Origin: Sinorhizobium meliloti
GTDB taxonomy: Bacteria > Pseudomonadota > Alphaproteobacteria > Rhizobiales > Rhizobiaceae
Length of the DNA: 32,000 bases
Assembly (NCBI RefSeq): GCF_017876815.1
Contig: NZ_JAGIOS010000004.1
Span: forward strand, 180,001 to 212,000
Reading direction: 5' to 3'
Of the stretch, positions 5,358 through 24,800 are shown one piece after another. The notes under the pieces are model-generated. The model was not told the DNA's origin and made no database searches. It was given only the letters and a program-made list of their open reading frames with translations. Position numbers and translations under genes: made by a program. The first letter of the stretch is position 1, and each line of letters opens with the position of its first letter.

Positions 5358-5404
5358 AATTGCCTCATGACGGGTTTATGCATGAATGTGGCCATCACGA
5401 AGCG

Positions 5405-6166
5405 TTAATCAGGCCAATCAACAGCCAACAAGCTGCCGCGCCAACAAACTTGCCGGCTCCATCGGAAGGCCTTTCGTGCCACATTGAATTTTCTCTTAGT
5501 GAAGGCGCAGCGAGACAATTTCCTCAGCGATCCGCTCCGCGGTCCGGCGTGGGCTCGTCTTCGGCCGGGATGAACGATCCCCCATGTCGGGTAGGCGTGC
5601 AGTTCTTCCCAGGCCAGGCGCGATGCGCTACGCGGGCCGCTTTCATGCTGGTGCGTCATCACCTCGTCGGACAGCCCGGCGAAAAAGACGTGATCCTCGT
5701 AGAGCACGCCCATCAGCGCGCTGATGACCATGGCGGGAAGCGGAAAGGAGAGGTGTTGGCGCAGGTCGGCGGGCTGCGGCTGGGCCGCCAGCTTCTCAAA
5801 CAACTGCGCGGTGAGAGCCTCTACCTGCTGCGCGAGCAGCTTCACCCTGCGGCTGCTGAAGGCCGGCGCCACGATCGTGCGCAGCCGGGCATGCTCGCTC
5901 CCCTCGTGCGAGACCAGCCACCCCGGCGAACCGAGAATCACCGAATCCGGGGTGAATTCCGCCGGCGGTATTCCCGCGGGCCGGAACGCCGAGTCGGACA
6001 GTACCGCCTTGGCCTCGTCGTAGCCTGTCACCCACCAGCCTTCATGCCCGGACGGGAAGCGCACGCGGTGGATCGGACCGTTGGCGCGTAGCGCCAACAT
6101 CTCGGGCGAGGGCTCGATGTGATCGACGCGCCACATCGGCAGCGTTGGCAAAGGTTGTTCGGACAT
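5405..6166 (-). pseudogene. cytochrome P450 remnant (N-terminal ~190 residues recognisable, 3' half missing)
   Basis: The N-terminus reads like a bacterial P450: PLPTLPMWRVD, GPIHRVRFPSGHEGWWVTGYDEAKAVLSDSAF, SHEGSEHARLRTIVAPAFSSRRV, FPLPAMVISALMGVLYEDHVFF. After about WEELHAY the translation becomes low-complexity Arg/Gly/Ser text. Only ~760 bp exist before the next gene, whereas a P450 needs ~1.2 kb. The I-helix AGxxT, ExxR and the Cys heme loop FxxGxxxCxG are all absent. Confidence 0.7.
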
Positions 6167-6721: not shown

Positions 6722-7936
6722 TTAAATCCTGATGGTCGGCATCCGCAGTCTTTTTTGGGGCGTCGCGTCATTGGCGCGGTATCGGATCACCGCCATCATG
6801 GCGAAGGCGAGCATGACGAGGGAGACGTGGCGATGCCAGCCATGCCATGACCGGGTTTCGTTGTGATCGAGTCCGAGCTCGTTCTTGGCGGTCTCGAAGC
6901 TGTCTTCGATCGCCCAGCGATGGCCTTCAACGGAAACGAGCGTCTGGATGCCCGTCCCGGCCGGGCACCATGTGGTGAAGAATGCGAGATCACCGTCGCT
7001 GATATTGCGCCGGATCAGGAGGCCACGGGTCCAAAGCCCAGATTTCGTCTCGTTGTATTCGTCGGCATCGAGGTCGGCGAGTTCGCAATAGGCCCAGTCA
7101 TGAAGCCGAGCGCCTTTGGTGCCCTCACCGGCGGAAAGACGCTGCCATGCACTTGGATCGAGATCACGGGCGATCTCCTGCGCTGTGCCGGCGACCGGAG
7201 GCTTTCCCGACCACGAGCCGAAATGGTGGTCCGATTTAACCCCAAGAACGTAGCCTTTGCAGGCTCGGCGCAGGGTTCCTTCGATGTCCCCGACGCCATA
7301 GACCGCATCTGCGGCCACCCATGAAAACGGCACATTGGCTGCCAGCGCACGCCGTATCATCTCGACAGCCAGGCCTGGCTTGGTAGCGAAGGCTGTAGCC
7401 TGAGGAACATGAGCTGCTGCAAGCCTTGCCGGATCGCCAGTCCAGCTCTTGGGCAAGTACAGGGCTCGATCGATAAAGGCATGGCCGCGATCGGACACAT
7501 AGGCGGCGAACACACCGATCTGGCAGTTCGTTATCTTGCCAGCCGAACCTGTATATTGACGTGCAACACCGCACGATGTCTTGCCCTGCTTGAGGAAGCC
7601 CGTCTCATCGATGACCAGGACCGCATCATCCGTGGCGAGGTTTTCTACGACATACTCTCGCACGATGTCGCGAAGTGCGTCCGCGTCCCAGCGCCCGCGC
7701 CCCAGAATGGCTTGTTGCCGCCACGGGCCGGGATCACCGGCCGCCTCAGCACGCATCCAACCTGTCTTACGCCGCTCGTCACCCAGCAAGCCGTCCAGGA
7801 AAAGGTTCGCAGAGGCTGCAACTCGCTCCTGCGTAAACAGTCCGCGCATGCGAGCCTTCACGTCGCGCAACGATGATGCCCAAAGCTCAAGCGTCGTCTC
7901 GATTGATGCACCTGCCATCCATGACCTCCGAATCAT
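6722..7936 (-). CDS. IS701-family DDE transposase
   Basis: 404 aa. The block VLVIDETGFLKQGKTSCGVARQYTGSAGKITNCQIGVFAAYVS followed by FATKPGLAVEMIRRALAANVPFSWVAADAVYG is the pattern I associate with IS701/IS4-like transposases. The ORF lies between the two inverted repeats. Confidence 0.85.
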   Translation of the reverse strand: MIRRSWMAGASIETTLELWASSLRDVKARMRGLFTQERVAASANLFLDGLLGDERRKTGWMRAEAAGDPGPWRQQAILGRGRWDADALRDIVREYVVENLATDDAVLVIDETGFLKQGKTSCGVARQYTGSAGKITNCQIGVFAAYVSDRGHAFIDRALYLPKSWTGDPARLAAAHVPQATAFATKPGLAVEMIRRALAANVPFSWVAADAVYGVGDIEGTLRRACKGYVLGVKSDHHFGSWSGKPPVAGTAQEIARDLDPSAWQRLSAGEGTKGARLHDWAYCELADLDADEYNETKSGLWTRGLLIRRNISDGDLAFFTTWCPAGTGIQTLVSVEGHRWAIEDSFETAKNELGLDHNETRSWHGWHRHVSLVMLAFAMMAVIRYRANDATPQKRLRMPTIRI

Positions 7937-7967
7937 GGAGACCCATAGATTCAGATCATAGATAAAT

Positions 7968-7985
7968 ATGCAACTGTAGTGCTAA
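7968..7985. repeat. IS terminal inverted repeat (right in window coordinates)
   Basis: atgcaactgtagtgctaa is the exact reverse complement of 6564-6581. Confidence 0.9.
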
Positions 7986-8020
7986 TTAAATGCCAAGCGA
8001 CAACAGCCTTCTGGCCGCAC

Positions 8021-8764
8021 TCACGGCAGGTCTTCGATAAAGGTCGCGGAGAATTTTACGTCGTCGCGCTGCGTTCGCACAGCCGCCGCGGCAGAATATG
8101 CACCCGCAAACGGCCTGCTCCAGAAGTGCCATGTGCTGCCGTCATCTCGTTCGTCACCGACGACGCGACATCGGCGATTACCGTCGAAACCGGAAAACGA
8201 GATATTGCGGATGGGATAGGATATGCCCAGCCCTCGCCCCTTGAGATAAGCTTCCTTCAGTGTCCAGATCTCACAAAAGCGATGCGGCCGATCCGCTTCC
8301 GCCAGCCCCAGCAGCGCCGAACGCTCCTCTGGAGCAAGCACAGTCGGGACCAGATGCCGGTAGTCGACCCTGCTGATCTGCTCGACATCCAGGCCGCAAT
8401 CGGCTTTTTGCGTGAGGATACAGCCCACCAATCCATCGGTATGAGAGAGGTTGAAGCGGATCGGAGCAGAGGACGGCGAGACGAGTTCGGGCCGTCCCCC
8501 GGGTGCAGAAGCAAAAGCCAGTTCACGCGGATCAGCGACCATATAGCGGGCAAGCAACAGCCTGAGCAGGCCATGGCTGAATACGTACATGTCGCGGTCG
8601 CGGTCGAAGACAAAGCGTCGGGCGCGCTGGCGCTCCTCCTCGTTCAGAACGTCGCGGGCCGCATTCCACAGCCTGACGCTTGCTTCCCTCGGCTGGCTCA
8701 GAAAAATATCGACCCGAAGTTCACTGCTCACCTTCCATGGATCCAGGTCGCCCGCCATGCTCAT
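8021..8764 (-). CDS. Sfp-type 4'-phosphopantetheinyl transferase
   Basis: 247 aa carrying the PPTase motifs RFNLSHTDGLVGC, CGLDVEQI and FCEIWTLKEAYLKGRGLG. Its ATG overlaps the upstream stop (ATGA at 8761-8764). Confidence 0.85.
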   Translation of the reverse strand: MSMAGDLDPWKVSSELRVDIFLSQPREASVRLWNAARDVLNEEERQRARRFVFDRDRDMYVFSHGLLRLLLARYMVADPRELAFASAPGGRPELVSPSSAPIRFNLSHTDGLVGCILTQKADCGLDVEQISRVDYRHLVPTVLAPEERSALLGLAEADRPHRFCEIWTLKEAYLKGRGLGISYPIRNISFSGFDGNRRCRVVGDERDDGSTWHFWSRPFAGAYSAAAAVRTQRDDVKFSATFIEDLP

Positions 8765-9582
8765 TGCGGGTGTTCCACGGCTGACCAGTCCACCAAATCG
8801 GCTATTGTTGCGGGTGCCGAACGGGTGCCGACCGCCACCGCATAGATTGGCGATTGCATGACTGGATCGATGTCGAGCATGGTCTCGATGACGTTATCGT
8901 TCAATGCGCAAGTAGGCGTGGCAACGAGGCCGTTGGCAGTCGCCGCCAGCAACATGTTTTGCGCAATGTGCTCCGCCTCGATCAACACCACACGGAATCC
9001 GGCGGGATGCCGGTACTTCCATGCCGTCCTCGCAAAATTTGCCACCAGTAGGATCAGGGCTGACGCACCGGAAAACCAGTCCTGACCACCAAGAACGGTC
9101 TCTGCCGAGGGAAGTGTGTCGCAAGGCATGTAAGCGAGTGAATTTTCCAGGGCCGAGTAGTGATAGAGGCCGTTCGGAAGATCCTGGTCATTGCAGGCAA
9201 GTACATAGGCTTCATAGGGATTTCTGGCGCCCCCCGACGGCGTCGTCTTAAGCGGCAGCTCCCCCAGATCGGCCCTCGCCAGTCCCACGATGCCGATGCG
9301 GGAGAACCGGCAGTCGCGCAACTGTTCCTTGGTGATCGCTCCCGCGGCGCTCCCGTCAAAGCCACGATAGCTGCGCCGACGCTTCATCACGCCGAAAGAT
9401 CCATTGTCGCGCGGTGGCGGCAGCGACACGACCCGGGCGGCATCGGCATTGGTGGTGAAAAGGGAAACCGGCGGCAAATTTAGCACCGTTCTGTCATCGC
9501 AGCGATGCTGCTGCCTGCATCGATATATTGGGTGTATTTGATCGAAAAGTGAAAGAGGCCGGCTGTCTCCCCCCAGCGCCAT
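8761..9582 (-). CDS. SagB/ThcOx-type nitroreductase-fold (FMN) oxidoreductase
   Basis: 273 aa containing MKRRRSYRGFDG...ITKEQL, TTPSGGARNPYEAYV, GLYHYSALENSL, and a C-terminal nitroreductase-like LIEAEHIAQNMLLAATANGLVATP. The exact start is uncertain. Confidence 0.7.
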   Translation of the reverse strand: MALGGDSRPLSLFDQIHPIYRCRQQHRCDDRTVLNLPPVSLFTTNADAARVVSLPPPRDNGSFGVMKRRRSYRGFDGSAAGAITKEQLRDCRFSRIGIVGLARADLGELPLKTTPSGGARNPYEAYVLACNDQDLPNGLYHYSALENSLAYMPCDTLPSAETVLGGQDWFSGASALILLVANFARTAWKYRHPAGFRVVLIEAEHIAQNMLLAATANGLVATPTCALNDNVIETMLDIDPVMQSPIYAVAVGTRSAPATIADLVDWSAVEHPQ

Positions 9583-9840
9583 TCCCGATCATACATGTCG
9601 TTCTCCAAGCGCAGTTCCGGCGACGATCAGGAAACCGCAGTCAAGCAGCCGGATGACTTCCCTGGCCACGCTCGGATAGCTGCCGAGATCGCGGCTCAAC
9701 CTCGGATGGATCACGTCCAGCCAGTAGGCTTCAGCGTTTGGGGGCGGTTCACAACCCGGTGCGGTCAAATCGCTGCTTGATGAAAGTTCAGGAGCAGGTC
9801 ATGACGGAAGGGAAGCTAACCATATAGTCAAAAAAATAGA

Positions 9841-10590
9841 TCATAGCGCGTGTCGAACCCATACGTTCGGTTCGGCATATATGCCGTAATTGTGCTCAAT
9901 CGACACAAGCATCGGCACCAGTGCACCATCAATTTCCACCATGCCCGAACGTTCAAACGCTGTTCCTGTCCAACTTGACCATTCGGCAATTGTCCCAGCA
10001 ATGGTAATTGAATAAGGTGCTATTTTTAAGATTCTGCCACCGACGGCTATGTGAGTTCGCAGCCAGGAATCCACCGGGGAGCCGTCAGCACGCTGTAGTT
10101 TGATGTATTCATCCATAGGTAGCAGCGGGTCTCGTTGCTTCTGATTTGGACGAACCGGCGCAGACAATTCGTCGAAGCCAACATTCCTGGCACAGGTCTT
10201 CAATGCGCCCAACATTGCCAGTGCATTGCCAATACCTCGTGCTTTGGGCGCTAATGTGATTTCGAGTGCACTCATCGTGTTTGGTCTGCGACCGATAAGT
10301 TTATCCTCATGCGCCCAGCGGATAACCTGGTCCCAACCGCCGTCAGGCAATTCGGCACGGCCATCAACGTTCAGTGCAAACGGCACGCCGAAAGCTCGAG
10401 CAACGACCTCCTCATCGATAAGTCCTACAAAGGCATAGTCAAGGTAGTCAAAAAACACGGCCTTCCCAAAATACAGCTTCGCAGTTTGATTGTGGCGCAT
10501 GAAGTTGGGCCAAAGACCATCGAATTTCGGTGAAAAAACTGAGGGAATCAGATCGGACCGTTCCCGTAATGAGAATACCTGTAAGCTCAT
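9841..10590 (-). CDS. GNAT-like N-acyltransferase family protein
   Basis: 249 aa with GNAT motif-A-like ARGIGNALAMLGAL. The C-terminal block DSWLRTHIAVGGRILKIAPYSITIAGTIAEWSSWTGTAFERSGMVEIDGALVPM...AEPNVWVRH resembles a widespread bacterial GNAT-related family. GAGG lies ~8 nt before the ATG. The gene has visibly lower GC than its neighbours. Confidence 0.6.
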   Translation of the reverse strand: MSLQVFSLRERSDLIPSVFSPKFDGLWPNFMRHNQTAKLYFGKAVFFDYLDYAFVGLIDEEVVARAFGVPFALNVDGRAELPDGGWDQVIRWAHEDKLIGRRPNTMSALEITLAPKARGIGNALAMLGALKTCARNVGFDELSAPVRPNQKQRDPLLPMDEYIKLQRADGSPVDSWLRTHIAVGGRILKIAPYSITIAGTIAEWSSWTGTAFERSGMVEIDGALVPMLVSIEHNYGIYAEPNVWVRHAL

Positions 10591-10716
10591 TCTTCTACCT
10601 CGCGCAAAACCTGTGTCACCTGAATCATTTTAACCAGTTGCGACCCAGTCCGCAGCTTTTTCTATGCCGACCTCAATTGCGACTTAGTCGCTAACCCAGC
10701 GGAAAGATTAGTGTCG

Positions 10717-10756
10717 AAAACCCACCGCTCTTGCATGGGACGAGCGACCGGTTTTC
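10717..10756 (-). terminator. weak hairpin plus T-run, possible intrinsic terminator after the ParB-like gene
   Basis: cccaccgctc (10721-10730) and gagcgaccgg (10742-10751) can form a 5-bp core stem (ccgctc/gagcg region) with imperfect extension. The stem is flanked by aaaa (10717-10720) and tttt (10752-10755). It starts 26 nt past the stop at 10778. The stem is short, so this is a low-confidence call. Confidence 0.2.
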
Positions 10757-10777
10757 AGTCGGAATTCGCACCACCCT

Positions 10778-11179
10778 TCAGGAACCATTGTCCCGATCAT
10801 ATCCGAGATCACTCAATGGGATTTTACATTCGGGGAACTGAGAGTCGAAGACATGTTTGGTTGTCTTGGCAGGGAACTTCCGTCCGCTCCTAGCCATAGC
10901 CAAAATGATCTCAGGAGTAACTACCTCTCCCAAACGCCAAGCTTCTACCCGAACACCGCGGTAGTCCAGTAACATTGCTGGCAATATCCTCAATTGAAGC
11001 CGCTTGGCGACAGCCAGTCTATGATGGCCATCCATTACGAAAAGCTCTCCCTTATGGACTGCAATTGGAGTCTTCCAGAATTTGGCTTGGAGAATCTCTT
11101 CTTCAAGCTCAAGAACTTGTCGGCAATCAACCTCTTCCGTCGGAGTCAAATCGTTGGGCTGTAAGAGATAGTAGCGCAT
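10778..11179 (-). CDS. small ParB/sulfiredoxin (Srx)-fold domain protein
   Basis: 133 aa. LQPNDLTPTEEV...PIAVHKGELFVMDGHHRLAVAKRLQLRILPAMLL matches the ParB N-terminal/Srx domain layout (L.PTE ... PI.V ... DGHHR ... A..LG...IP). GGAGG lies ~10 nt before the ATG. Confidence 0.6.
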   Translation of the reverse strand: MRYYLLQPNDLTPTEEVDCRQVLELEEEILQAKFWKTPIAVHKGELFVMDGHHRLAVAKRLQLRILPAMLLDYRGVRVEAWRLGEVVTPEIILAMARSGRKFPAKTTKHVFDSQFPECKIPLSDLGYDRDNGS

Positions 11180-11336
11180 TCGAGTATAACCTCCGGTAGT
11201 AAAATACCTAATGTGTAGCCGGAACCTCGATTACTTAGTGATGGCGTGCGAAGGTCCGACGGATCGCGCAGGATCAAAGACGAATAAAGCTTCTTCATTC
11301 CGGCCTGCCTTTTCCAAGCTCCGGCGATGATGCAGA

Positions 11337-12872
11337 TCACTCTCTGGTGAGGAAGGCGACTTTTTCCAAGACCAGCAGACTTCGATCGAACAAATGCTTC
11401 ATGCCTCGTTCGCCTGCGTTGATCGCTTCCACAATCAGGCGTGCACTAAGGCAAAGCCGCAACGCGGCAACCTGGACGCCCTCAAGCTCGCCGCAAGGAA
11501 CCGGTTGTCCAACTTCGCAACGAACTGACAACATTGAGTCACCGGGCGTCTTGGCTTTCACGGTCGAATCCTGGCACAAATGATCGTAGATCCTCTTGGT
11601 CTGCGGGACAGCCACCGGATTTCTCCCCGCACGTCGACATACGTGAAACAGTATAAAAGGAAAAATTGTCGGTAGTTCGTCCCAAGAATTGTGAGTGACG
11701 GGCAGATGGCGTTGTAAGGTCGGTTGCTCTAACAGCTGAAAATTAGGCGCATTGTTCAGCCAGGAGGTAACCTCCTTATGAAAGTCAAACACGACGCTTT
11801 GGACATCTTCCTCTGAAACACTACGGAAAGCACGCAACTCCACGAGCGCAGCTTCCCACCGCAAAAGTAAACCAAAATTACTGGCTTCCGGGAGTGACTG
11901 AGCGCCTGCCCAATTTCGTGGCCAGTCTGCCCGGCAAGACTTCGCTCCTGGTATAGGGTGTAGTGGCCGTTTCTTCAAACGGCACGCCAGCGACTCAGGA
12001 ACCAAGAGCATTGCCGAAAAGGCTGGACCTCCCAAAAACTTGGATCCAGTAACTATCACCAAGCAGCCGATGGTAAGGTAGGTTTGCAGCGTCTTCGGTG
12101 CCAATCGAAATTGAGATGCATCGATGAGAATTTCAACACTATCGCGCCAGCGACGCTTCAAATCCAGCGCCTTGCTCGGAGTTGGAGCCAGTACGCCGGT
12201 TTTCGAAACGTCAGTCAACACAATCAAAATACGACTGTACCGCGTTATCGCAGCCGATACTATTGCCTCAAGCTCATCATCGACGGCCGCAATGGGGCGG
12301 AGACGGGCACCTTCCATGCGAACTGCTATCGATCTAACATCAATTGGATCGGCTGGATTAACCCTTATTCCACCACTCTCGCGGTGCGGAGAATGCATAC
12401 CGCCAGCCAGAGCATGACCGATCCCACTCCCCGTCTCCTCCGATTGGACCATAATTGCCAATGTCTTTGCGACGGCGCTTCCTGCGACCAATTTGGAGGC
12501 GAGCATGTGAGCGTCGGTGCCAGAAGGGGAAACGATGAGTTCTAGCCCTTGAATATGCTCCAAACCGCATAAGCCAATGAATTCGGTGCGAAGTCTGTCG
12601 ATCTCTTCTAGATAAAGTTCTTCCGGTGCCCGTCCATGCAAGGTCTGCAATATCCTTTGGCGTAGTTTTTCCGCAGCTGAGAATCCGATGTCAGAAATCG
12701 TAGATGCGGTCGCGGAACCAAATGAGAATATTTCCCGGTCGGGAAGTGGTTTACGACCGTACTTATTTGTCATTTGACCAGCATCAAGTTCGATCCGCTC
12801 GTCACCCCCCAAGGTTAACAACTCAGCGGTCGAAGGAAGGTGAGTATTCAGGTGGGATAGCCGCTCTGTCAT
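11337..12872 (-). CDS. fold-type I PLP-dependent enzyme, aminotransferase class V / cysteine-desulfurase-like
   Basis: 511 aa with [11 protein letters not shown], then IDASQFRL, then [19 protein letters not shown]. The D..Q to Lys spacing (~26 residues) matches class V enzymes, and the Lys in GSKF is the presumed PLP lysine. Its ATG overlaps the NRPS stop (ATGA at 12869-12872). My hand count for 11641-11740 gives 45% GC. Confidence 0.55.
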
Positions 12873-15800
12873 TTGACATCCAGATTTCTGTTCGGGTGGG
12901 TAGTCGGCGAATTGTTTAAGGCTGCTGACAGTTGGCGCGCCAAGACCCGCCGGTTTTCCGGAACAGCCATCATCGTCACGTGATCGCCTGGAACGGGCAC
13001 AGCCTGGATAAACTCCGCGCCCAAAATTCGATCCCAGCCGCGCATTGGTGAACTTGCGTCCGGCCCTGCCGGAAGTCGCGCCCCTCGGCTAAAAGAGTGC
13101 TCCAGAGCATAAAATTGGTGCACGCTGACTGGCAGTGATGGCATCTCATACGAATGCACAGCTTGGTGAAATTGCGCGTATCTGATGGCGTCATAGTAGA
13201 GATCTGGTCTACCGACGACCGCACCGATTTGTCGCGCTTTCTCAAACAACTGCTCAACGGAACTCTGCCCGGCCGATTGGCGCAGCACCTCGAACCCCTC
13301 ATCACCCAGCGACTCCAGAGGTTCAAAGATCATTTGCAAAGCGATTTCTGTATCCGTCATCGCAGGCGACATCGCCGGGATTGGCACATCGATGAATGCC
13401 ATAAATGAAACCGTTTCTTCCAGATTGAGCAGGCGCTCGGCGAGCGCATACGCCAGTACAGCCCCAGAGGAATACCCGGCAAATCGATATGGTCCCCGTG
13501 GCTGCACTTTGCGTACTGCGTGCGCTACTTTTGTTGCAATCTCTTCAAGGCTTGCTCGACGAGCTTCCTCAAATGGCGGCCAAGGCAAAGCGTAGACATG
13601 GCAATCTATGTCCATCTCTCTGACTAAGCGGAACACATATGAGCAGTCGCCATAACCTGTCGGAACAAAGAAGACTGGCGCTTGCGACCCTATCGTGCGA
13701 ACCGGTAGCACACCGGGTGTATAATGGGATGAGTCCAACTCGATCTTCGGAGCGAGGTCTTTGAGGATCGGGGCATCAAAAATGCTGCTGGCGCTGACCT
13801 TCATCCCAAGGGCTAACGCTTGGGCGAGCACGCGCACCGCCAACAATGAGTGGCCGCCGAGTTCGAAGAAGTTGTCGTGGCGCCCGACCTGCTCGACGCC
13901 GAGAAGCTCGGCCCAGATCCCGGCCAGCAGCGTCTCGATCTCGCCCTGCGGCGCCTCGTAGGCCCGACGCGCATAGGCATCGTCGTCGGGGACCGGCAGC
14001 GCCTTGCGGTCGAGCTTGCCGTTCACCGTCAGCGGCAGTGCATCCAGCCGCACGAAGGCCGACGGCACCATGTAGTCCGGTAGCAGGCCACCCAGATGCG
14101 CCCGCAACGACGCAGCAAGCCCGGCGCCATCGGCTTCGGCCGACCCGTCCGTCGTCTTCGCAACCACATAGGCGACGAGCCGCTTGTCGCCCGCCGCATC
14201 CGCGTGCGCCACCACCGCGGCATCGCCGACAAGCTCATGCTCCAGCAGCCGGGCGGCGATCTCGCCCGGCTCGATGCGGAAGCCGCGGATCTTCACCTGG
14301 TCGTCATTGCGGCCCAGAAACTCGAGATTGCCGTCCGGCAGGTAGCGCGCCAGGTCGCCGCTCCGGTACATCCGGGCGCCGGCCTTGCCGCTGAACCGAT
14401 CCGCCAGGAACCGCTCCGCCGTCAGATCCGGACGGTTCAGGTAGCCGCGCGCCACCCCCGCCCCGCCGATATAAAGCTCACCAACCGCCCCAAACGGGAC
14501 GGGTGCGCCATGACCGTCAAGCACATAAAGCCGCGTGTTCGCAATCGGACGGCCGATCGGCACATACCGGTGAGGCGCCTCAATTCTCGTGTCGGTAAGA
14601 AAGGTGGTCGCCCAAATCGTAGTCTCCGTCGGACCATAAAGATTTCTGAGAGATTTTACCCTTCTGCCGAGGTTCGAGGCCAGTTCTGAAGGCAACGCTT
14701 CGCCGCCACACAACGCACTTAAATCGGGCGCACCCTCCCAGCCGGCGTCGAAGAGCATACGCCACGCCGCGGGGGTCGCCTGCATCACAGTTATCTTCTG
14801 ATGGGATAGATACCGCTGTAATCCAATAACACTGGTTCCGTGAGCAACAACGACGTTAGCTCCCACGGCCAGTGGCAGATAGAGTTCCAGCCCCGCAATG
14901 TCGAAAGAGATCGTCGTGATCGCGAGGAGTGAATCGCGCTCTGTGAGGCCCGATACATCTAAAAGAGCGCGTAGAACATTGAGAACACTTGCATGCTCGA
15001 CCATGACGCCCTTAGGCGTGCCGGTGGATCCCGATGTGTAGATGACATAGGCGAGATTGCGGGCTGTCAGGCCGAGGGCATGCGGGTCGGGATCGTCAGC
15101 GGACTGGTCGGCCCAAGCGGGCATGGCCGCATCGAGATCGACCGCGCTCAGATCGGCGATTGCCTCGGCGCCCAACGCCGCGCGGCCGGCGGCGTCGCAA
15201 AGCAGCAGCCGCGGGCCGGCATCGTCGAGCAACTGCCGCAGCCGTTCGCCGGGATAGGCCGGGTCGAGCGGCACATAGGCGCCGCCGGCCTTGAGGATCG
15301 CCAGCAGTCCCACCACCATCGCCGGGCTGCGCTCGACGCAGATCGCCACTGGCTGGTCCGGCCTCACCCCGAGCCCGATCAGATGATGGGCCAGCCGGTT
15401 GGCATCGGCATTGAGCGCGCCATAGGAGATCGACTGCTCTTCGAAGACCAGTGCGACCGCGTCGGGCACCCGGCGCACCTGCGCCTCGAACAGCGCATGC
15501 ACGCAAAGATCCGACGGATAGTCCGCTTCCGTCCGGTTCAACTCCTCCAGCAGGTAGCTGCGCTCCTCAGCCGGAAGAATGTCGAGCTCGCGCACCGGCC
15601 TATCGGGCGCTTGCTCCAGCGCGTCGACCAGTTGCTCGAGCGCCCGCTGCATATAGCCGCAGATCCGATCGGCGGAGATCGGTTCGACCGCATCCGCCGT
15701 GAGCCCCAGCTCCTGACCAAAATCATCCACCGACAATGTCAGCGGGTAGTTGGTCCGTTCCTCGTCCCCCAGCCATTCCATGCCGGACAGCACGTCGCTT

Positions 15801-18800
15801 GTTCCCTCGCCGGCCATGGCCGGCGTGTTGTGGCGATAGTTCAGCAGCGCACTGAACAGTGGCGCTGGTGCGGCAATATCGCTGCAGCGTTGCGCCAATG
15901 CCAGCGAGGCATGCTCGTGTGAGAGCAATTCGGCCAGACGGGCGTGGGCGATACGCACACTTTCCTCGACCCCGGTCTCATCCAGATCCAGCCGCAACGG
16001 CAAGGTATTCATGAACAAGCCCATGGCACGGTCGGCGCCGGCACCCGCATGCATGCGGCCGAACAGCACCGTGCCGAACACCACCTGCTCGCGCCCGCTG
16101 CTCAGCGCCACCACCTGGGCCCAGGCCAGATGGCAAAGGCTAGCCAGACTCACCCCCAGCCGCCGCGCCTGGTGGCGCAGCCGATCGTTGAGCGCCTGCG
16201 GCAGCATCCGCCGTGCCTCGCGGGATCCGCGGCCGTCGCCGTAGACCTCGCTCAGAGCGAACGGCAGGGTCGGCTCGTCGATGTCGGCCAGCATCTCCCG
16301 GAAGAACGCTTCATGCGCTTTGGCATCCATGCCAAGCCGCGCCTGCGCCACCAGGTTGCGGAACGGCTGCGGCGCTGCAAGCTCATGCGCGCGCCCCTGC
16401 AGCACGGCCCGGACCTCGGCATGCATCACTTCGGCCGTCGTATGATCGCCGATCAGATGGTGCTGCAACACCAAAAGCAGCCAGCGCCCACTGCCCGGTT
16501 CGCGCGCGATCACGAACCGCATCAGCGGCGCCCGGCCAAGGTCGAGACGGTACTGGCGCGGATCGAACCGCCGCCTGAGCTCATCGGCGCCGGAACCATC
16601 ACAGCCCTCCAGCTCGACCTCGAGCACATCCAAGGCCGCCTTGCGCCAGACAACCTGCGCCGGGCTCGACAGACCCTCCCAGACAAAGGCCGTGCGCAGA
16701 ATGTCGTGGCGGTCGACCACCTGTTGAACCGCAGCAAGGTAGCGATCGAGCACACCCCGCTCGGCAAAGGCCATCTGCGACATCAGGAGATAGGGGTCAC
16801 CCTGGGTTGCCAGCAAATGATGGAACAGAATGCCGTCCTGCAGCGGCGACAGGCCATAGATATCCTGGATATTGCCGACGCCGCCGGGCACCGTCGACAC
16901 GATCCGGTCGATCTCCGGTTGGGTAAGATCGATCAGCGGCAGCATCTGCGGCGTGATCGCCGTACTCTGTTCCGTGATCGGGTTGGCAGGCACCGCCACC
17001 TCCCGGTGGCTGCCAAGACTGGCGGCCAGATCGGCAAGCATCGGCTTTGCAAATACGGTGCGAACCTCGACCCCGAGCGACAGCCGCCGCAGACGCTCCA
17101 TCATTTGAACGGCCAACAATGAGTGGCCGCCGAGCTCGAAGAAGTTGTCGTGGCGCCCGACCTGCTCGACGCCGAGAAGCTCGGCCCAGATCCCGGCCAG
17201 CAGCGTCTCGATCTCGCCCTGCGGCGCCTCGTAGGCCCGACGCGCATAGGCATCGTCGTCGGGGACCGGCAGCGCCTTGCGGTCGAGCTTGCCGTTCACC
17301 GTCAGCGGCAGTGCATCCAGCCGCACGAAGGCCGACGGCACCATGTAGTCCGGTAGCAGGCCACCCAGATGCGCCCGCAACGACGCAGCAAGCCCGGCGC
17401 CATCGGCTTCGGCCGACCCGTCCGTCGTCTTCGCAACCACATAGGCGACGAGCCGCTTGTCGCCCGCCGCATCCGCGTGCGCCACCACCGCGGCATCGCC
17501 GACAAGCTCATGCTCCAGCAGCCGGGCGGCGATCTCGCCCGGCTCGATGCGGAAGCCGCGGATCTTCACCTGGTCGTCATTGCGGCCCAGAAACTCGAGA
17601 TTGCCGTCCGGCAGGTAGCGCGCCAGGTCGCCGCTCCGGTACATCCGGGCGCCGGCCTTGCCGCTGAACGGATCCGCCAGGAACCGCTCCGCCGTCAGAT
17701 CCGGACGGTTCAGGTAGCCGCGCGCCACCCCCGCCCCGCCGATATAAAGCTCACCAACCGCCCCAAACGGAACCGGCTGACCATGGCCGTCAAGCACATA
17801 AAGCCGCGTGTTCGCAATCGGACGGCCGATATGTGGCACAGCGTCACTGAAGAGCTGTCCCGACGTTGCCACCACAGTAACTTCCGTAGGACCATAGTTG
17901 TTTATTAACTTGAGAGGCGACGGTAGCCGGGAAGGCACACGCTGCAGACGATCACCGCCAATAAGCAAGTACTCCAACAAGGGAGTTACCAGCTCGCCTT
18001 CCAATGCCGTTGCAGCCAGCGGCGTGACTAAAAAGGCGGCGTCCAGTGGTTGATCACGCCACCATTGCAGGAGAAGCAGAGGATCTCCTGCTGCCGGTCT
18101 GGGTGGGAGCAGCAATGTGCTGCGATTGTATAATGCAGACCATAACTCCCAAGCGCTGGCATCGAATGCCACTCCAGCCGTGAGTGTGCAGCAGGTTTCT
18201 GGTTGCGGACAAAATGTTTGCACATGCCATGCTGTGAGATTGACCAGGCTTTGATGCTCGACCATGACGCCCTTAGGCGTGCCGGTGGATCCCGATGTGT
18301 AGATGACATAGGCGAGATTGCGGGCTGTCAGGCCGAGGGCATGCGGGTCGGGATCGTCAGCGGACTGGTCGGCCCAGGCGGGCATGGCCGTATCGAGATC
18401 GACCGCGCTCAGATCGGCGATTGCCTCGGCGCCCAACGCCGCGCGACCGGCGGCGTCGCAAAGCAGCAGCCGCGGGCCGGCATCGTCGAGCAACTGCCGC
18501 AGCCGTTCGCCGGGATAGGCCGGGTCGAGCGGCACATAGGCGCCGCCGGCCTTGAGGATCGCCAGCAGTCCCACCACCATCGCCGGGCTGCGCTCGACGC
18601 AGATCGCCACTGGCTGGTCCGGCCTCACCCCGAGCCCGATCAGATGATGGGCCAGCCGGTTGGCATCGGCATTGAGCGCGCCATAGGAGATCGACTGCTC
18701 TTCGAAGACCAGTGCGACCGCGTCGGGCACCCGGCGCACCTGCGCCTCGAACAGCGCATGCACGCAAAGATCCGACGGATAGTCCGCTTCCGTCCGGTTC

Positions 18801-21800
18801 AACTCCTCCAGCAGGTAGCTGCGCTCCTCAGCCGGAAGAATGTCGAGCTCGCGCACCGGCCTATCGGGCGCTCGCTCCAGCGCGTCGACCAGTTGCTCGA
18901 GCGCCCGCTGCATATAGCCGCAGATCCGATCGGCGGAGATCGGTTCGACCGCATCCGCCGTGAGCCCCAGCTCCTGACCAAAATCATCCACCGACAATGT
19001 CAGCGGGTAGTTGGTCCGTTCCTCGCCCCCCAGCCATTCCATGCCGGACAGCACGTCGCTTGTTCCCTCGCCGGCCATGGCCGGCGTGTTGTGGCGATAG
19101 TTCAGCAGCGCACTGAACAGTGGCGCTGGTGCGGCAATATCGCTGCAGCGTTGCGCCAATGCCAGCGAGGCATGCTCGTGTGAGAGCAATTCGGCCAGAC
19201 GGGCGTGGGCGATACGCACACTTTCCTCGACCCCGGTCTCATCCAGATCCAGCCGCAACGGCAAGGTATTCATGAACAAGCCCATGGCACGGTCGGCGCC
19301 GGCACCCGCATGCATGCGGCCGAACAGCACCGTGCCGAACACCACCTGCTCGCGCCCGCTGCTCAGCGCCACCACCTGGGCCCAGGCCAGATGGCAAAGG
19401 CTAGCCAGACTCACCCCCAGCCGCCGCGCCTGGTGGCGCAGCCGATCGTTGAGCGCCTGCGGCAGCATCCGCCGTGCCTCGCGGGATCCGCGGCCGTCGC
19501 CGTAGACCTCGCTCAGAGCGAACGGCAGGGTCGGCTCGTCGATGTCGGCCAGCATCTCCCGGAAGAACGCTTCATGCGCTTTGGCATCCATGCCAAGCCG
19601 CGCCTGCGCCACCAGGTTGCGGAACGGCTGCGGCGCTGCAAGCTCATGCGCGCGCCCCTGCAGCACGGCCCGGACCTCGGCATGCATCACTTCGGCCGTC
19701 GTATGATCGCCGATCAGATGGTGCTGCAACACCAAAAGCAGCCAGCGCCCACTGCCCGGTTCGCGCGCGATCACGAACCGCATCAGCGGCGCCCGGCCAA
19801 GGTCGAGACGGTACTGGCGCGGATCGAACCGCCGCCTGAGCTCATCGGCGCCGGAACCATCACAGCCCTCCAGCTCGACCTCGAGCACATCCAAGGCCGC
19901 CTTGCGCCAGACAACCTGCGCCGGGCTCGACAGACCCTCCCAGACAAAGGCCGTGCGCAGAATGTCGTGGCGGTCGACCACCTGTTGAACCGCAGCAAGG
20001 TAGCGATCGAGCACACCCCGCTCGGCAAAGGCCATCTGCGACATCAGGAGATAGGGGTCACCCTGGGTTGCCAGCAAATGATGGAACAGAATGCCGTCCT
20101 GCAGCGGCGACAGGCCATAGATATCCTGGATATTGCCGACGCCGCCGGGCACCGTCGACACGATCCGGTCGATCTCCGGTTGGGTAAGATCGATCAGCGG
20201 CAGCATCTGCGGCGTGATCGCCGTACTCTGTTCCGTGATCGGGTTGGCAGGCACCGCCACCTCCCGGTGGCTGCCAAGACTGGCGGCCAGATCGGCAAGC
20301 ATCGGCTTTGCAAATACGGTGCGAACCTCGACCCCGAGCGACAGCCGCCGCAGACGCTCCATCATTTGAACGGCCAACAATGAGTGGCCGCCGAGTTCGA
20401 AGAAGTTGTCGTGGCGCCCGACCTGCTCGACGCCGAGAAGCTCGGCCCAGATCCCGGCCAGCAGCGTCTCGATCTCGCCCTGCGGCGCCTCGTAGGCCCG
20501 ACGCGCATAGGCATCGTCGTCGGGGACCGGCAGCGCCTTGCGATCGAGCTTGCCGTTCACCGTCAGCGGCAGTGCATCCAGCCGCACGAAGGCCGACGGC
20601 ACCATGTAGTCCGGTAGCAGGCCACCCAGATGCGCCCGCAACGACGCAGCAAGCCCGGCGCCATCGGCTTCGGCCGACCCGTCCGTCGTCTTCGCAACCA
20701 CATAGGCGACGAGCCGCTTGTCGCCCGCCGCATCCGCGTGCGCCACCACCGCGGCATCGCCGACAAGCTCATGCTCCAGCAGCCGGGCGGCGATCTCGCC
20801 CGGCTCGATGCGGAAGCCGCGGATCTTCACCTGGTCGTCATTGCGGCCCAGAAACTCGAGATTGCCGTCCGGCAGGTAGCGCGCCAGGTCGCCGCTCCGG
20901 TACATCCGGGCGCCGGCCTTGCCGCTGAACCGATCCGCCAGGAACCGCTCCGCCGTCAGATCCGGACGGTTCAGGTAGCCGCGCGCCACCCCCGCCCCGC
21001 CGATATAAAGCTCACCAACCGCCCCAAACGGAACCGGCTGACCATGGCCGTCAAGCACATAAAGCCGCGTGTTCGCAATCGGACGGCCGATCGGCACATT
21101 CGTCGATGCGGAAAGATCTGCAGGGATGTCATGGAAAGCACAACCGACAACCGCTTCCGTCGGGCCATACTCGTTGACCATTCTAGCCGCCGGCTGGATC
21201 TGACGCCATAGCTCGACCGTCGAAGACGACAATGCCTCACCGCCAATGACGAGCACCTCCACCTGACTGGCATCTCCAGCCGACTGCAGTTGCTGTCCAA
21301 GAACATCCAGATGGCTCGGGGTGACATTGACCAGCCCGCACGGTGTGCCGACCCTTGACCTGATCCCCTCGACCTCGTCCCCCTCTTTCGTAAGCAATGC
21401 ATGGCCGCCAGAGACCAAAGGCGCAAACAGGCTGTTGACCGTGGCATCGAAGGCGAGCGAAGAGGAGACGACGGATGAGGATATGGGAGCGTAGCTCTCA
21501 CGAGCCCAGCTTAGATAATTGGTCATCCCGCGATGCTCGACCATGACGCCCTTAGGCGTGCCGGTGGATCCCGATGTGTAGATGACATAGGCGAGATTGC
21601 GGGCTGTCAGGCCGAGGGCATGCGGGTCGGGATCGTCAGCGGACTGGTCGGCCCAGGCGGGCATGGCCGTATCGAGATCGACCGCGCTCAGATCGGCGAT
21701 TGCCTCGGCGCCCAACGCCGCGCGACCGGCGGCGTCGCAAAGCAGCAGCCGCGGGCCGGCATCGTCGAGCAACTGCCGCAGCCGTTCGCCGGGATAGGCC

Positions 21801-24800
21801 GGGTCGAGCGGCACATAGGCGCCGCCGGCCTTGAGGATCGCCAGCAGTCCCACCACCATCGCCGGGCTGCGCTCGACGCAGATCGCCACTGGCTGGTCCG
21901 GCCTCACCCCGAGCCCGATCAGATGATGGGCCAGCCGGTTGGCATCGGCATTGAGCGCGCCATAGGAGATCGACTGCTCTTCGAAGACCAGTGCGACCGC
22001 GTCGGGCACCCGGCGCACCTGCGCCTCGAACAGCGCATGCACGCAAAGATCCGACGGATAGTCCGCTTCCGTCCGGTTCAACTCCTCCAGCAGGTAGCTG
22101 CGCTCGTCGGGAGGCAGGATGTCCAGCTCGGACACCGGCTGCTCGGCATCGGCAAGCATCGCCCGCAGCAGCGCCAGCAGATAACCACATTGCCGCTCGA
22201 TCGTCGCCCGGTCGAACAACGCCGTCGCATAACCGAGAGTCCCGGCGATGGCCTCGCCCTGCTCTCCCAGGTTCAGTTCCAGATCGAACTTGACCTGATC
22301 GAGCCCCTCGCCCGCAGCCTCCACCTGCAGCCCCGGCAGGTCCAATGACCCGCCGGTGTTGTTCTGCCAGGCCAGTCCCACCTGGAACAACGGCGTGTGA
22401 CCGAGAGCCCGGGGCGGCTGGACGATCTCCACCACCTGCTCGAACGGCAGGTCCTGATGATCCTGCGCAGTCAAGGCCGCGCGCCGCGCCCGTTCCAGGA
22501 GATCGGACACGCTCGGCTCGCCCGACAGATCGATTCGAACCGCCAGGGTGTTGACGAAGAAACCGATTAGATCCTCGATCTCGCGGCGACGACGATTGGC
22601 CGTCGGCACACCGATCACGATATCGTCCTGCCCGGACAGGCGCGACAGCACCGCAGCCCAGGCCGCCAGCACTGTCATGAACAACGTCGTGCCATGCTGC
22701 CGGCTCAGCCGCTTGAGCCCGCGCGTCAGAGCCTCATCGATGATAACCGGCACGCTGGCTCCGGCAAACGACTGCTGTGCCGGCCGCGGCCGGTCCGTCG
22801 GCAGCGCCAGACGGGCCGGGGCGCCAGACAGGGTGTCGCGCCAATACTGCGCCTGACGCTGCAGCCGCTCGCCGGACAACCATTGCCGTTGCCAGGCGGC
22901 ATAATCCGGATACTGGATCGCCAGCGGCGGCAAAGGATCGTCCTCTCCAGCCTCAAACGCGCGGTAAAGGCTGCTGAGCTCGCGCACCAGCACCCCCATC
23001 GACCAGCCGTCCGAGACTATGTGATGCTGCGTCAGCAGAAAGACGTGCTCCTCATCCGCCAGCCGGATCAGCCGGCCGCGGATCAGCGGCTCGCGCGCCA
23101 GATCGAACGGCGTGCGCGCCTCTTCTTGGCACAGATCCAAAAGCGCGGCTTGCGCATCCGGCCTGTCCCGCAGATCGTGCTCGACCACCGGCAATCCCCT
23201 GTCCCCGGACAAAATCTGGACCTGCGGGTCATCCTCTCCGGCGACGAACGTGCAGCGCAGCGCCTCGTGACGGGCAAACAGGCGGTCAAGGCTGCGCCGC
23301 CAGGCGACACGGTCGAGTCTGCCCTGCAGTCGCCACCCCAGGGGAATGTTATAGTTCGTGCTGTCTTCGTCCAACTGTGCCAAGAACCAGAGACGCTGCT
23401 GCGAATAGGACAGCGGAAGCGCACCATCACGTCCGACTGGCATGATGACCGGTGCTGTCTGCGCACCAGAACCGTTCAGCACTTCGCCAACACTTAGCGC
23501 CAAATCGGCCAATGTTGGCTTGGCGAACAGGATCGCCAGCGGCAGCTCCACTGCCAAGGCCTCGGTCAGCCGGACGAGCACGCGCACCGCCAACAATGAG
23601 TGGCCGCCGAGCTCGAAGAAGTTGTCGTGGCGCCCGACCTGCTCGACGCCGAGAAGCTCGGCCCAGATCCCGGCCAGCAGCGTCTCGATCTCGCCCTGCG
23701 GCGCCTCGTAGGCCCGACGCGCATAGGCATCGTCGTCGGGGACCGGCAGCGCCTTGCGGTCGAGCTTGCCGTTCACCGTCAGCGGCAGTGCATCCAGCCG
23801 CACGAAGGCCGACGGCACCATGTAGTCCGGTAGCAGGCCACCCAGATGCGCCCGCAACGACGCAGCAAGCCCGGCGCCATCGGCTTCGGCCGACCCGTCC
23901 GTCGTCTTCGCAACCACATAGGCGACGAGCCGCTTGTCGCCCGCCGCATCCGCGTGCGCCACCACCGCGGCATCGCCGACAAGCTCATGCTCCAGCAGCC
24001 GGGCGGCGATCTCGCCCGGCTCGATGCGGAAGCCGCGGATCTTCACCTGGTCGTCATTGCGGCCCAGAAACTCGAGATTGCCGTCCGGCAGGTAGCGCGC
24101 CAGGTCGCCGCTCCGGTACATCCGGGCGCCGGCCTTGCCGCTGAACGGATCCGCCAGGAACCGCTCCGCCGTCAGATCCGGACGGTTCAGGTAGCCGCGC
24201 GCCACCCCCGCCCCGCCGATATAAAGCTCACCAACCGCCCCAAACGGAACCGGCTGACCATGGCCGTCAAGCACATAAAGCCGCGTGTTCGCAATCGGAC
24301 GGCCGATCGGCACATTCGTCGATGCGGAAAGATCTGCAGGGATGTCATGGAAAGCACAACCGACAACCGCTTCCGTCGGGCCATACTCGTTGACCATTCT
24401 AGCCGCCGGCTGGATCTGACGCCATAGCTCGACCGTCGAAGACGACAATGCCTCACCGCCAATGACGAGCACCTCCACCTGACTGGCATCTCCAGCCGAC
24501 TGCAGTTGCTGTCCAAGAACATCCAGATGGCTCGGGGTGATTTTGACCAGGCTGCGGCCTAAGCCAAGCTCTACCTTAAGGTTTTCGGTTTCATTTCGGT
24601 TGGATATGAGATGTTCCTGCGCACCACAGATTAGAGGCGCGAACAGGCTGGTAATCGTGGCATCGAAGGCGAGCGAAGAGGAGACGACGGATGAGGATAT
24701 GGGAGCGTAGCTCTCACGAGCCCAGCTTAGATAATTGGTCATCCCGCGATGCTCGACCATGACGCCCTTAGGCGTGCCGGTGGATCCCGATGTGTAGATG

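Follow-up and report, generated by a model that had tools for sequence, protein, structure and literature searches.

A predicted minimal serine kinase, a predicted fold-type-I pyridoxal-phosphate enzyme and a GNAT-fold protein as a candidate cassette of an orphan nonribosomal peptide synthetase on rhizobial plasmids

In the staphyloferrin B pathway of Staphylococcus aureus, the serine kinase SbnI feeds SbnA, a pyridoxal 5'-phosphate (PLP) enzyme of fold type II that displaces the phosphate group. SbnA consumes O-phosphoserine. SbnI and SerK of Thermococcus have in common an N-terminal ParB/Srx fold, a phosphate-binding D-G-H/V-H-R motif, a catalytic Glu and Asp, and the C-terminal motif K/V-T-T/R-H/F. 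A gene of this SerK/SbnI type is also found inside a nonribosomal peptide synthetase (NRPS) cluster, that of edeine in Brevibacillus brevis, and edeine contains 2,3-diaminopropionate. Here, a comparable arrangement is described in a 32,000-nucleotide stretch of Sinorhizobium meliloti (contig NZ_JAGIOS010000004.1, positions 180,001 to 212,000, hereafter the window), where a giant NRPS gene is followed by genes for a 511-aa PLP enzyme, a 133-aa protein of SerK/SbnI type and a 249-aa GNAT-fold protein. It is tentatively proposed that the three genes form a precursor-supply and tailoring cassette for this orphan NRPS of conjugative rhizobial plasmids. The 133-aa protein has the four SerK/SbnI features listed above, and its relatives are encoded together with SbnA and SbnB homologs. 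It differs from SbnI in having no C-terminal regulatory part, and from EdeB, which is full length (256 aa), carries a helix-turn-helix (HTH) domain and is characterised as a transcriptional activator. Its partner belongs to an uncharacterised fold-type-I family and not to the fold-type-II SbnA, and no SbnB is encoded in the window.

The coordinates and the minus-strand orientation of the three open reading frames (ORFs), as given in a preliminary description of this DNA, were confirmed. The NRPS gene occupies 12869..32000 on the minus strand as its 3' part (ORF 12869-31993, with the frame open to the window edge) and encodes in the window six adenylation (A) domains, condensation (C) and dual epimerization/condensation (E/C) domains and a terminal thioesterase (TE). 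The TE-domain end, comprising the last ~290 aa (12869..13741, minus), has a low GC content, and PF00975 was identified on the orthologous S. psoraleae gene. The proposed translational coupling of the PLP gene (11337..12872, minus) to the synthetase has a real overlap behind it, as the NRPS stop and the PLP start share an ATGA at 12872-12869 (minus strand GTC AAA TGA / ATG ACA GAG). The gene for the 133-aa protein (10778..11179, minus) and the GNAT gene (9841..10590, minus) follow. GC contents are 50.8% for the GNAT gene, 48.5% for the 133-aa gene, 52.4% for the PLP gene and 54.6% for the TE region, so that the low GC previously noted is indeed common to them, although the range given then (~45-51%) was slightly low. 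In contrast, the NRPS body outside the TE has 65.5% GC and a GC content at third codon positions (GC3) of 78%, compared to a GC3 of ~50% in the three tail genes.

For the 133-aa protein, a family profile built from 30 members matched SerK (3e-13) and SbnI (1.5e-7) in the PDB, whereas canonical ParB proteins scored 0.01-0.7. The ParB/Srx fold named in the preliminary description is therefore specifically SerK/SbnI-like, and not that of a ParB CTPase or a sulfiredoxin. The NCBIfam SerK model matched the N-terminal part at 6e-8 and the SbnI model matched weakly; the curated whole-protein cut-offs of NF053625 and NF033589 were missed (32 bits vs 380 and 13 bits vs 350). The alignment to SerK falls into two pieces, SerK residues 17-107 and 204-241, and skips residues 108-203, which indicates that the protein corresponds to SerK minus ~97 central residues; at 133 aa it does not have the full two-domain architecture of SerK/SbnI (about 240-255 aa). 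Within the aligned pieces the catalytic positions are retained. T14-E15 is invariant, and E15 (codon 11135-11137) aligns with SerK E30, the position of the E30Q/E30A mutant entries in the PDB, and with SbnI E20. The motif M-D50-G-H-H-R-L is invariant as well; D50-G-H-H-R54 lies at 11018-11032, the region aligns with IVDGHHRW of SerK and VIDGVHRF of SbnI, and D50 corresponds to SbnI D58. The C-terminal motif of the window protein is SGRKFPAKTTKH, and that of the family, A-R-S-G-R-K-F-P-x-K-T-T-R-H, is common to SerK. According to a passage of PMC9641203 that cites Verstraete 2018, Glu20 and Asp58 are needed for SbnI to act as a kinase. From its sequence, the 133-aa protein is best read as a predicted minimal SerK/SbnI-type free-serine kinase, and the peptidyl substrates that had also been suggested for it are unlikely.

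The strongest functional evidence for this kinase comes from the genomic context of its relatives. Its closest outgroups (70% and 64% identity) and its relatives of 50-60% identity are the first gene of SbnA/SbnB-type operons, which encode an SbnB-like ornithine cyclodeaminase or octopine dehydrogenase, an SbnH-like Orn/DAP decarboxylase ('Y4yA family') and an SbnA-like PALP protein, and often in addition an IucA/IucC synthetase and an exporter. This arrangement was observed for every 50-60% relative with room downstream (80 metagenome loci), and the Ralstonia solanacearum copy (132 megaplasmid records) lies inside an annotated sbnA/sbnB staphyloferrin B locus. Since the relatives are located in SbnA/SbnB operons and SbnA uses O-phosphoserine, the family is best read as a proteobacterial stand-in for SbnI, a role that it probably fills in these operons. 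Proteins of 130-150 aa from this family occur in staphyloferrin-B/SbnA/SbnB-type operons of Ralstonia, Sinorhizobium, Methylobacterium, Agrobacterium and Rhizobium. The only member named in the literature is Y4yB of Sinorhizobium fredii (53-58% identity), which is encoded in the T3SS (type III secretion system) region in the order y4yB-y4yA-y4xP-y4xO-y4xN-y4xM, that is, in an SbnA/SbnH/IucA-type operon and not beside an NRPS. Its role was called enigmatic (PMC3973906), and the sbn cluster of M. aquaticum was described as being without sbnI (PMC9301485). An SbnI-like role of these small proteins thus seems to be unrecognised in the literature.

The mini-kinase family comprises 2,339 clusters at 50% identity, mostly of 125-180 aa. 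It includes recurrent fusions, 360-390 aa or longer, of an N-terminal MobA-like nucleotidyltransferase to a C-terminal mini-kinase. These fusions point to a small-molecule kinase logic and suggest that a small alcohol is activated by phosphorylation followed by nucleotidyl transfer. Other long fusions (455-917 aa) gave no Pfam match outside the ParB_N part. On plasmid p1 of Burkholderia gladioli a homolog with 34% identity adjoins a serC paralog, in a region that also encodes a PF00282 decarboxylase, a KS-containing polyketide synthase (PKS), an AurF-like di-iron oxygenase and a cyclic-peptide ABC exporter; this region seems to be another secondary-metabolite cluster that draws on phosphoserine. 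The 'class V-fold' enzyme of this region was considered as a member of the 511-aa family and rejected, as hhalign gave a probability of 0.6% and the protein is the PF00282 decarboxylase.

The 511-aa protein gave no match in Pfam, in NCBIfam, in a phmmer search of the PDB or with a 60-sequence profile against the PDB, and none of the 60 members analyzed matched a PLP or any other Pfam family at E up to 10, PF00266 included. The family nevertheless has at least 1,758 homologs. An AlphaFold2 model based on the 60-sequence alignment (pLDDT 85.9, pTM 0.88) was compared with the PDB using Foldseek and matched fold-type-I PLP enzymes only, with probability 1.0 and TM scores of about 0.45-0.52. Among these were DOPA decarboxylase, a C-S lyase, SufS, BioF, threonine aldolase, PvdN and LolT. 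On the strength of this confident model, the protein is predicted to be a fold-type-I PLP enzyme. The class V character that it had been given holds at the level of the predicted fold only, and no sequence model supports it.

Several residues are invariant in the family: K278, the putative Schiff-base lysine (codon 12039-12041), in T-G-S-K-F-x-G-G-P; D251, the candidate Asp for binding the pyridine nitrogen, and Q254 in D-A-x-Q; T275; and R472 in L-R-L-C-L-S-A-R. Together with the predicted fold, the lysine motif T-G-S-K-x-x-G-G-P, the D-A-x-Q 27 residues upstream (D251 to K278) and the C-terminal L-R-x-C/S-L-S/G-x-R, which resembles a substrate-carboxylate Arg motif, are reminiscent of class V enzymes such as IscS/SufS, the C-S lyases, PvdN, LolT, phosphoserine aminotransferase and SepCysS. 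The D-x-x-Q motif, the D-to-K spacing and the Arg motif resemble those of the class V enzymes IscS, SufS and AGXT. On the other hand, the structural matches reach ~0.5 TM at best, and group II decarboxylases and BioF-type enzymes are found among them. The persulfide Cys loop of the desulfurases is not conserved, the sole near-invariant Cys being C474 inside the LRLCLSAR strand, and compared with class V enzymes the protein carries ~100 extra, highly conserved N-terminal residues.

Distant members of the PLP family (31-46% identity) adjoin the gene of a protein with tetratricopeptide repeats (TPR) and a RimK-like ATP-grasp part, and usually also that of a PF00282 enzyme resembling diaminobutyrate (Dab) decarboxylase. 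The ATP-grasp and PLP genes often overlap by 4 bp, and the catalytic residues of the PLP family are identical in the NRPS and ATP-grasp settings. The adjacency and the 4-bp overlaps in both settings indicate that the family is habitually coupled to an amide-forming enzyme, either an ATP-grasp ligase or an NRPS. The ATP-grasp module was found in Sulfuricella/Sulfuriferula-like betaproteobacteria, Methylobacter, Stellaceae and R. tumorigenes, and neither its ATP-grasp protein nor its PLP protein gave a Pfam match above threshold. The ~410-aa neighbor of the distant PLP homologs had been considered as a fusion of kinase and GNAT; this was ruled out, as it is the TPR and RimK-like ATP-grasp protein.

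For the 249-aa protein the GNAT fold that had been assigned was borne out by structure prediction, Foldseek and profile. The AlphaFold2 model had a pLDDT of 93.9, and the top Foldseek matches were CurA GNAT_L (2ref/2ree, 9e-10), the SxtA decarboxylase domain and GphF (7uci and 6mfc were also listed), followed by ordinary N-acetyltransferases. The family profile matched CurA in the PDB at 2.8e-6 over residues 106-192, which cover the insertion with the catalytic His; this insertion, P-M-x-E/D-Y ... D-x-x-L-R-x-H, is common to the 249-aa protein and CurA GNAT_L, GphF and SxtA. By our own residue count, the invariant H180 (10051-10053) and V146 occupy the positions of CurA H389 and T355, the catalytic pair of CurA. 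The decarboxylase pair of His and Thr is therefore only half retained, the Thr position being an invariant Val. The protein also differs from CurA GNAT_L, GphF and SxtA in being free-standing and not part of a PKS loading module next to an acyl carrier protein (ACP). A CoA-type motif, R118-G-x-G-x-A, is present in the window protein as R118-G-I-G-N-A. PF00583 was matched weakly by 11 of 48 members (best 8e-4) and not by the window protein.

The GNAT family was found in 251 species-level genomes, many of them of Streptomyces, Amycolatopsis, Micromonospora and Bradyrhizobium. Its neighbors include mfd and mazG in Streptomyces and rpe, hisC/tyrA and others in Bradyrhizobium, and clustering of neighbors with a GC3-based filter against long antisense ORFs in high-GC genomes yielded no conserved partner in 80 genomes. 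A PLP gene of the 511-aa family adjoins the GNAT gene only in the rhizobial plasmid and island copies. The actinomycete homologs in the mfd/mazG region are ~45% identical to the window protein, and the gene is apparently a core gene there, with no link to a biosynthetic cluster.

Over its 5 kb the tail matches plasmid pMl1 of S. meliloti ml56 with 100% identity. Its identity is 95-99% to plasmids of S. meliloti and S. medicae that are accessory and mostly conjugative, among them pSMED03 of strain WSM419; parts of it are also present on Rhizobium plasmids. In WSM419 the island consists, in this order, of a divergent LysR regulator, two NRPS genes (~8,900 aa each) and the genes for the PLP enzyme, the kinase, the GNAT protein, a SagB-type dehydrogenase and a phosphopantetheinyl transferase (PPTase), and it contains no further tailoring or transport gene. 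Insertion sequence (IS) elements and integrases flank this island and likewise the homologous islands on other plasmids. The order NRPS–PLP–kinase–GNAT was observed in S. meliloti, S. medicae, S. psoraleae, S. kostiense, S. terangae, two Ensifer species and R. mongolense, and NRPS islands of Sinorhizobium, Ensifer and R. mongolense were the only places where the full trio was seen. A PLP–GNAT pair without the kinase directly follows a homologous NRPS in Paraburkholderia youngii, Cupriavidus necator and R. jaguaris; the last NRPS module is 68% identical between the window and P. youngii. The pair was also found in P. mimosarum, P. atlantica, Cupriavidus sp. UYPR2.512, Sinorhizobium sp. 8-89 and R. 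calliandrae, on short contigs that hold only the NRPS end or no NRPS. The clusters of P. youngii, C. necator and R. jaguaris have no SagB gene, which within the island belongs to the Sinorhizobium-type version only. A PPTase gene is found in the clusters of C. necator and R. jaguaris as well.

The split between a low-GC TE, PLP and GNAT part and a high-GC NRPS body recurs in P. youngii, C. necator, R. jaguaris and S. kostiense, and in all versions checked the TE, PLP and GNAT genes have 45-53% GC and the NRPS body 65-69%. As it is repeated in four homologous clusters, this split is a conserved property and not due to chance. Among seven diverged Sinorhizobium/Ensifer islands, all three tail genes had equal dS (0.2-0.3) and a dN/dS of 0.2-0.3, and are therefore real genes under purifying selection; a hitchhiking or decaying tail is ruled out by the dN/dS values together with the synteny. 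The composition, synteny and selection data define a core of NRPS-TE, PLP and GNAT, with the PPTase as a possible further member. The kinase and SagB genes are lineage-specific additions, which are nevertheless maintained by selection. The trio had been regarded as one inherited unit; this applies to TE, PLP and GNAT, which form a compositional and syntenic unit in alpha- and beta-rhizobia, but not to the kinase, which is restricted to the Sinorhizobium/Ensifer/Rhizobium version, so that the trio is not one ancient unit. Island kinases have a GC content of 48.5-50%, compared to 62% for the sbn-type copies in S. meliloti. A recent capture of the kinase from a resident sbn-type operon was ruled out by this difference (48.5% vs 62%) and by an amino acid identity of only 55-70%. 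In the literature searched (pSMED03/WSM419 NRPS and rhizobial symbiotic-plasmid NRPSs) no description of the NRPS cluster was found, and neither was one of the trio, in agreement with the preliminary description.

The specificity codes of the six A domains in the window were read by aligning each domain to a hand-anchored reference, with GrsA numbering. This resulted in DFWNIGMVHK (Thr), DLYNNALTYK, DATKVGEVGK (Asn), DANNVGEVGK, DAWLLGNVVK (Leu-like) and DILQLGLIWK (Gly). The domain with the code DANNVGEVGK ('A4'; 20285..21574, minus) has just two substitutions relative to the neighboring Asn code, T to N at position 239 and K to N at position 278. A pocket of Asn type that has lost the cationic Lys278 but retains Glu322 would fit a polar side chain that is larger or cationic. 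Of the 14 WSM419 modules read, at least five have this DANN code, which is also present in the homologs of R. jaguaris (DANNIGEVGK) and C. necator. A DANN-type code was thus present in all three NRPS–PLP–GNAT clusters with readable upstream modules (Sinorhizobium, R. jaguaris and C. necator), which indicates that its residue is a signature building block of this PLP- and GNAT-tailed NRPS family and supports the link to the unassigned A4 domain that had been proposed. The NRPS itself is an orphan of about 16 modules.

These results can be combined in a four-step model leading from serine to the DANN residue, to which we assign a probability of roughly 0.4. The 133-aa kinase would phosphorylate free L-serine and raise the pool of O-phospho-L-serine, as its homology, catalytic residues and the context of its relatives suggest. 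The PLP enzyme, whose production is tied to that of the synthetase by the ATGA overlap, would then take a free alpha-amino acid, most plausibly O-phosphoserine, and eliminate or replace the beta-phosphate through an aminoacrylate to give a beta-substituted alanine, for example a diaminopropionate-like residue; what was observed for this enzyme concerns its predicted fold and the cofactor-binding residues. In the weakest step, the GNAT protein may use an acyl-CoA to N-acylate this amino acid before loading, or to neutralise it, a self-protection that is pure speculation. Finally, the DANNVGEVGK A domains, with their Asn-type pocket minus Lys278, would load the product, for which A4 is the candidate acceptor in the window. 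If the supply of O-phosphoserine by SerA/SerC were sufficient, the kinase would be dispensable, which would explain why the beta-rhizobial and R. jaguaris versions do not have it. The phosphorylation-activated PLP chemistry suggested previously has a precedent in the O-phosphoserine-consuming SbnA/SbnB operons of the kinase relatives.

Several points weigh against the model. The PLP family is usually encoded with an ATP-grasp ligase and a decarboxylase and without a kinase, and the same invariant residues in this kinase-free context imply that its substrate may be an ordinary metabolite and not O-phosphoserine. The kinase was never found beside this PLP family outside the island. With ~97 SerK residues missing, the activity and substrate of the 133-aa protein are not guaranteed. 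The GNAT protein does not have the catalytic Thr of its closest structural relatives, and its family mostly occurs as a stand-alone gene amid unrelated housekeeping neighbors. More generally, the genomic survey placed the trio only in NRPS islands and each of the families mostly away from NRPS genes (PLP with ATP-grasp and decarboxylase, kinase with SbnA/B, GNAT alone). The DANN code was not found in the literature searched. Finally, the tail genes are spaced by 157-258 bp, and a promoter and terminator scan of 7900-13000 gave nothing beyond shuffled expectation; with such gaps and no such signal, co-transcription of the tail genes is unproven.

The main alternative explanation, somewhat less probable than the model, is that the finished peptide or its carrier-bound form is the substrate of the PLP and GNAT proteins, or that the GNAT protein confers self-resistance by acetylating the peptide, while the kinase is unrelated to them and only boosts phosphoserine/serine metabolism or feeds an SbnA/SbnB diaminopropionate pathway from another part of the genome. 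The spread of the GNAT family as a lone gene is what would be expected of a detoxifying acetyltransferase, and its structural matches include generic N-acetyltransferases of amino-acid analogs. Other Sinorhizobium plasmids carry SbnA-type operons that have a kinase of their own, and half of the NRPS–PLP–GNAT clusters do not have the kinase. An unrelated kinase is difficult to reconcile with its position between the PLP and GNAT genes, which was kept in seven diverged islands with the same dS and purifying selection, or with its GC content of 48.5%, which fits the cassette and not the 62% of the resident sbn-type copy. The invariant Arg472 in LRLCLSAR, which resembles the class V Arg motif for the alpha-carboxylate, would argue for a free amino acid as substrate and not a peptide.

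The top Foldseek and profile matches of the GNAT protein are decarboxylase domains, the catalytic His of which aligns with H180, and BioF and serine-palmitoyltransferase-type enzymes are among the matches of the PLP model. This would suit a decarboxylase acting on a carboxy-acyl thioester on a carrier, as in CurA, GphF and SxtA, with the PLP enzyme condensing or transaminating the resulting unit in the manner of SxtA, which combines a GNAT decarboxylase with a PLP domain of the 8-amino-7-oxononanoate synthase type. We consider this improbable, because the decarboxylase Thr is replaced by the invariant Val146 throughout the 249-aa family, the island encodes neither a PKS module nor a free-standing carrier protein, the NRPS ends in a normal TE, and the GNAT family is mostly found far from carrier-protein systems. 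It is very improbable that the 133-aa protein is instead a ParB-like DNA-binding regulator, a nuclease or a CTP switch of the plasmid or cluster. SbnI and EdeB of the edeine cluster are also transcriptional regulators, ParB-fold proteins bind various NTPs, and the NCBI label reads only 'ParB N-terminal domain-containing', but the protein, at a mere 133 aa, has no HTH or dimerisation domain, and the family profile separates SerK from the ParB proteins by the scores given above. Moreover, the catalytic Glu of SerK/SbnI is invariant here and is not known from the ParB CTPase motif, and the recurrent nucleotidyltransferase fusions follow a metabolic logic of phosphorylation plus activation.

Compared with the described systems, the features that are new in the serine-to-DANN model are a fold-type-I partner that is invisible to Pfam in place of SbnA, a minimal kinase of 133 aa, and a free-standing CurA-type GNAT protein minus the decarboxylase Thr. 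In its most extended form, the model would make the 511-aa proteins a large, unrecognised family of fold-type-I enzymes that convert O-phosphoserine to beta-substituted alanines, a non-homologous counterpart of SbnA/CysK-type enzymes that is always accompanied by an amide-forming ligase, either an NRPS or a RimK-like ATP-grasp protein. The 133-aa kinase would be smaller than any other known amino-acid kinase and would take the place of the 'missing SbnI' in proteobacterial staphyloferrin-B-type clusters. Together with the GNAT protein, the two enzymes would supply a diaminopropionate-like residue in N-acylated form, used five or more times in a symbiosis-plasmid peptide that alpha- and beta-rhizobia have in common. 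That all of this holds jointly is unlikely. The model offers a testable function for a PLP-fold family that comprises at least 1,700 sequence clusters and is recognised by no domain database, and the finding would gain interest if this family proved to be a new O-phosphoserine-dependent beta-replacement enzyme. For the serine-kinase family of 125-180 aa (~2,300 clusters), it draws attention to an apparent SbnI role in diaminopropionate/siderophore operons of Ralstonia, Methylobacterium, Agrobacterium and rhizobia. It also concerns an orphan NRPS of ~16 modules that moves between alpha- and beta-rhizobial plasmids.

The NRPS gene itself has an unusual composition. Between 13822 and 32000 the window contains direct repeats that are 98-99.96% identical over 0.6-3.9 kb, and the C/A-core/T scaffolds of the modules are nearly identical. 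These scaffolds have ~65-70% GC, with dips to ~56-60% about once per module that may mark the A-domain specificity segments. This pattern suggests ongoing gene conversion between modules, with the specificity cassettes protected or exchanged; near-identical high-GC scaffolds with low-GC specificity segments would illustrate in nature how modules are homogenised and subdomains exchanged. The number of modules differs between S. meliloti and S. medicae. On pSMED03 of WSM419, NRPS1 starts with a formyltransferase-like domain (YHDSPLPRHAGTHATSWAI) that is directly followed by a condensation domain, an unusual initiation architecture.

Downstream of the GNAT gene, a SagB-type FMN dehydrogenase of the nitroreductase fold is encoded at 8761..9582 (minus; PF00881 8e-16, TIGR04511 1e-42), which covers positions 150-375 of the 380 of TIGR04511 only. 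No heterocyclization (Cy) domain was noticed in the part of the NRPS that was read, which bears on the substrate of this dehydrogenase. Its gene overlaps by 4 bp with the last gene of the cluster, encoding the Sfp-type 4'-phosphopantetheinyl transferase (8021..8764, minus; PF01648 and PF22624), and both genes have ~60% GC. A DDE_5 transposase (6722..7936, minus) marks the island edge. To its left lies an unrelated gene group (409-6166), which encodes the beta subunit of an acyl-CoA carboxylase (409-1869), a protein of the indolepyruvate:ferredoxin-oxidoreductase family (1866-5357) and two overlapping opposite-strand ORFs with no Pfam match (5351-6091, plus; 5405-6166, minus). On pMl1 this group runs on into genes for HMG-CoA reductase, biotin carboxylase and MmgE/PrpD.

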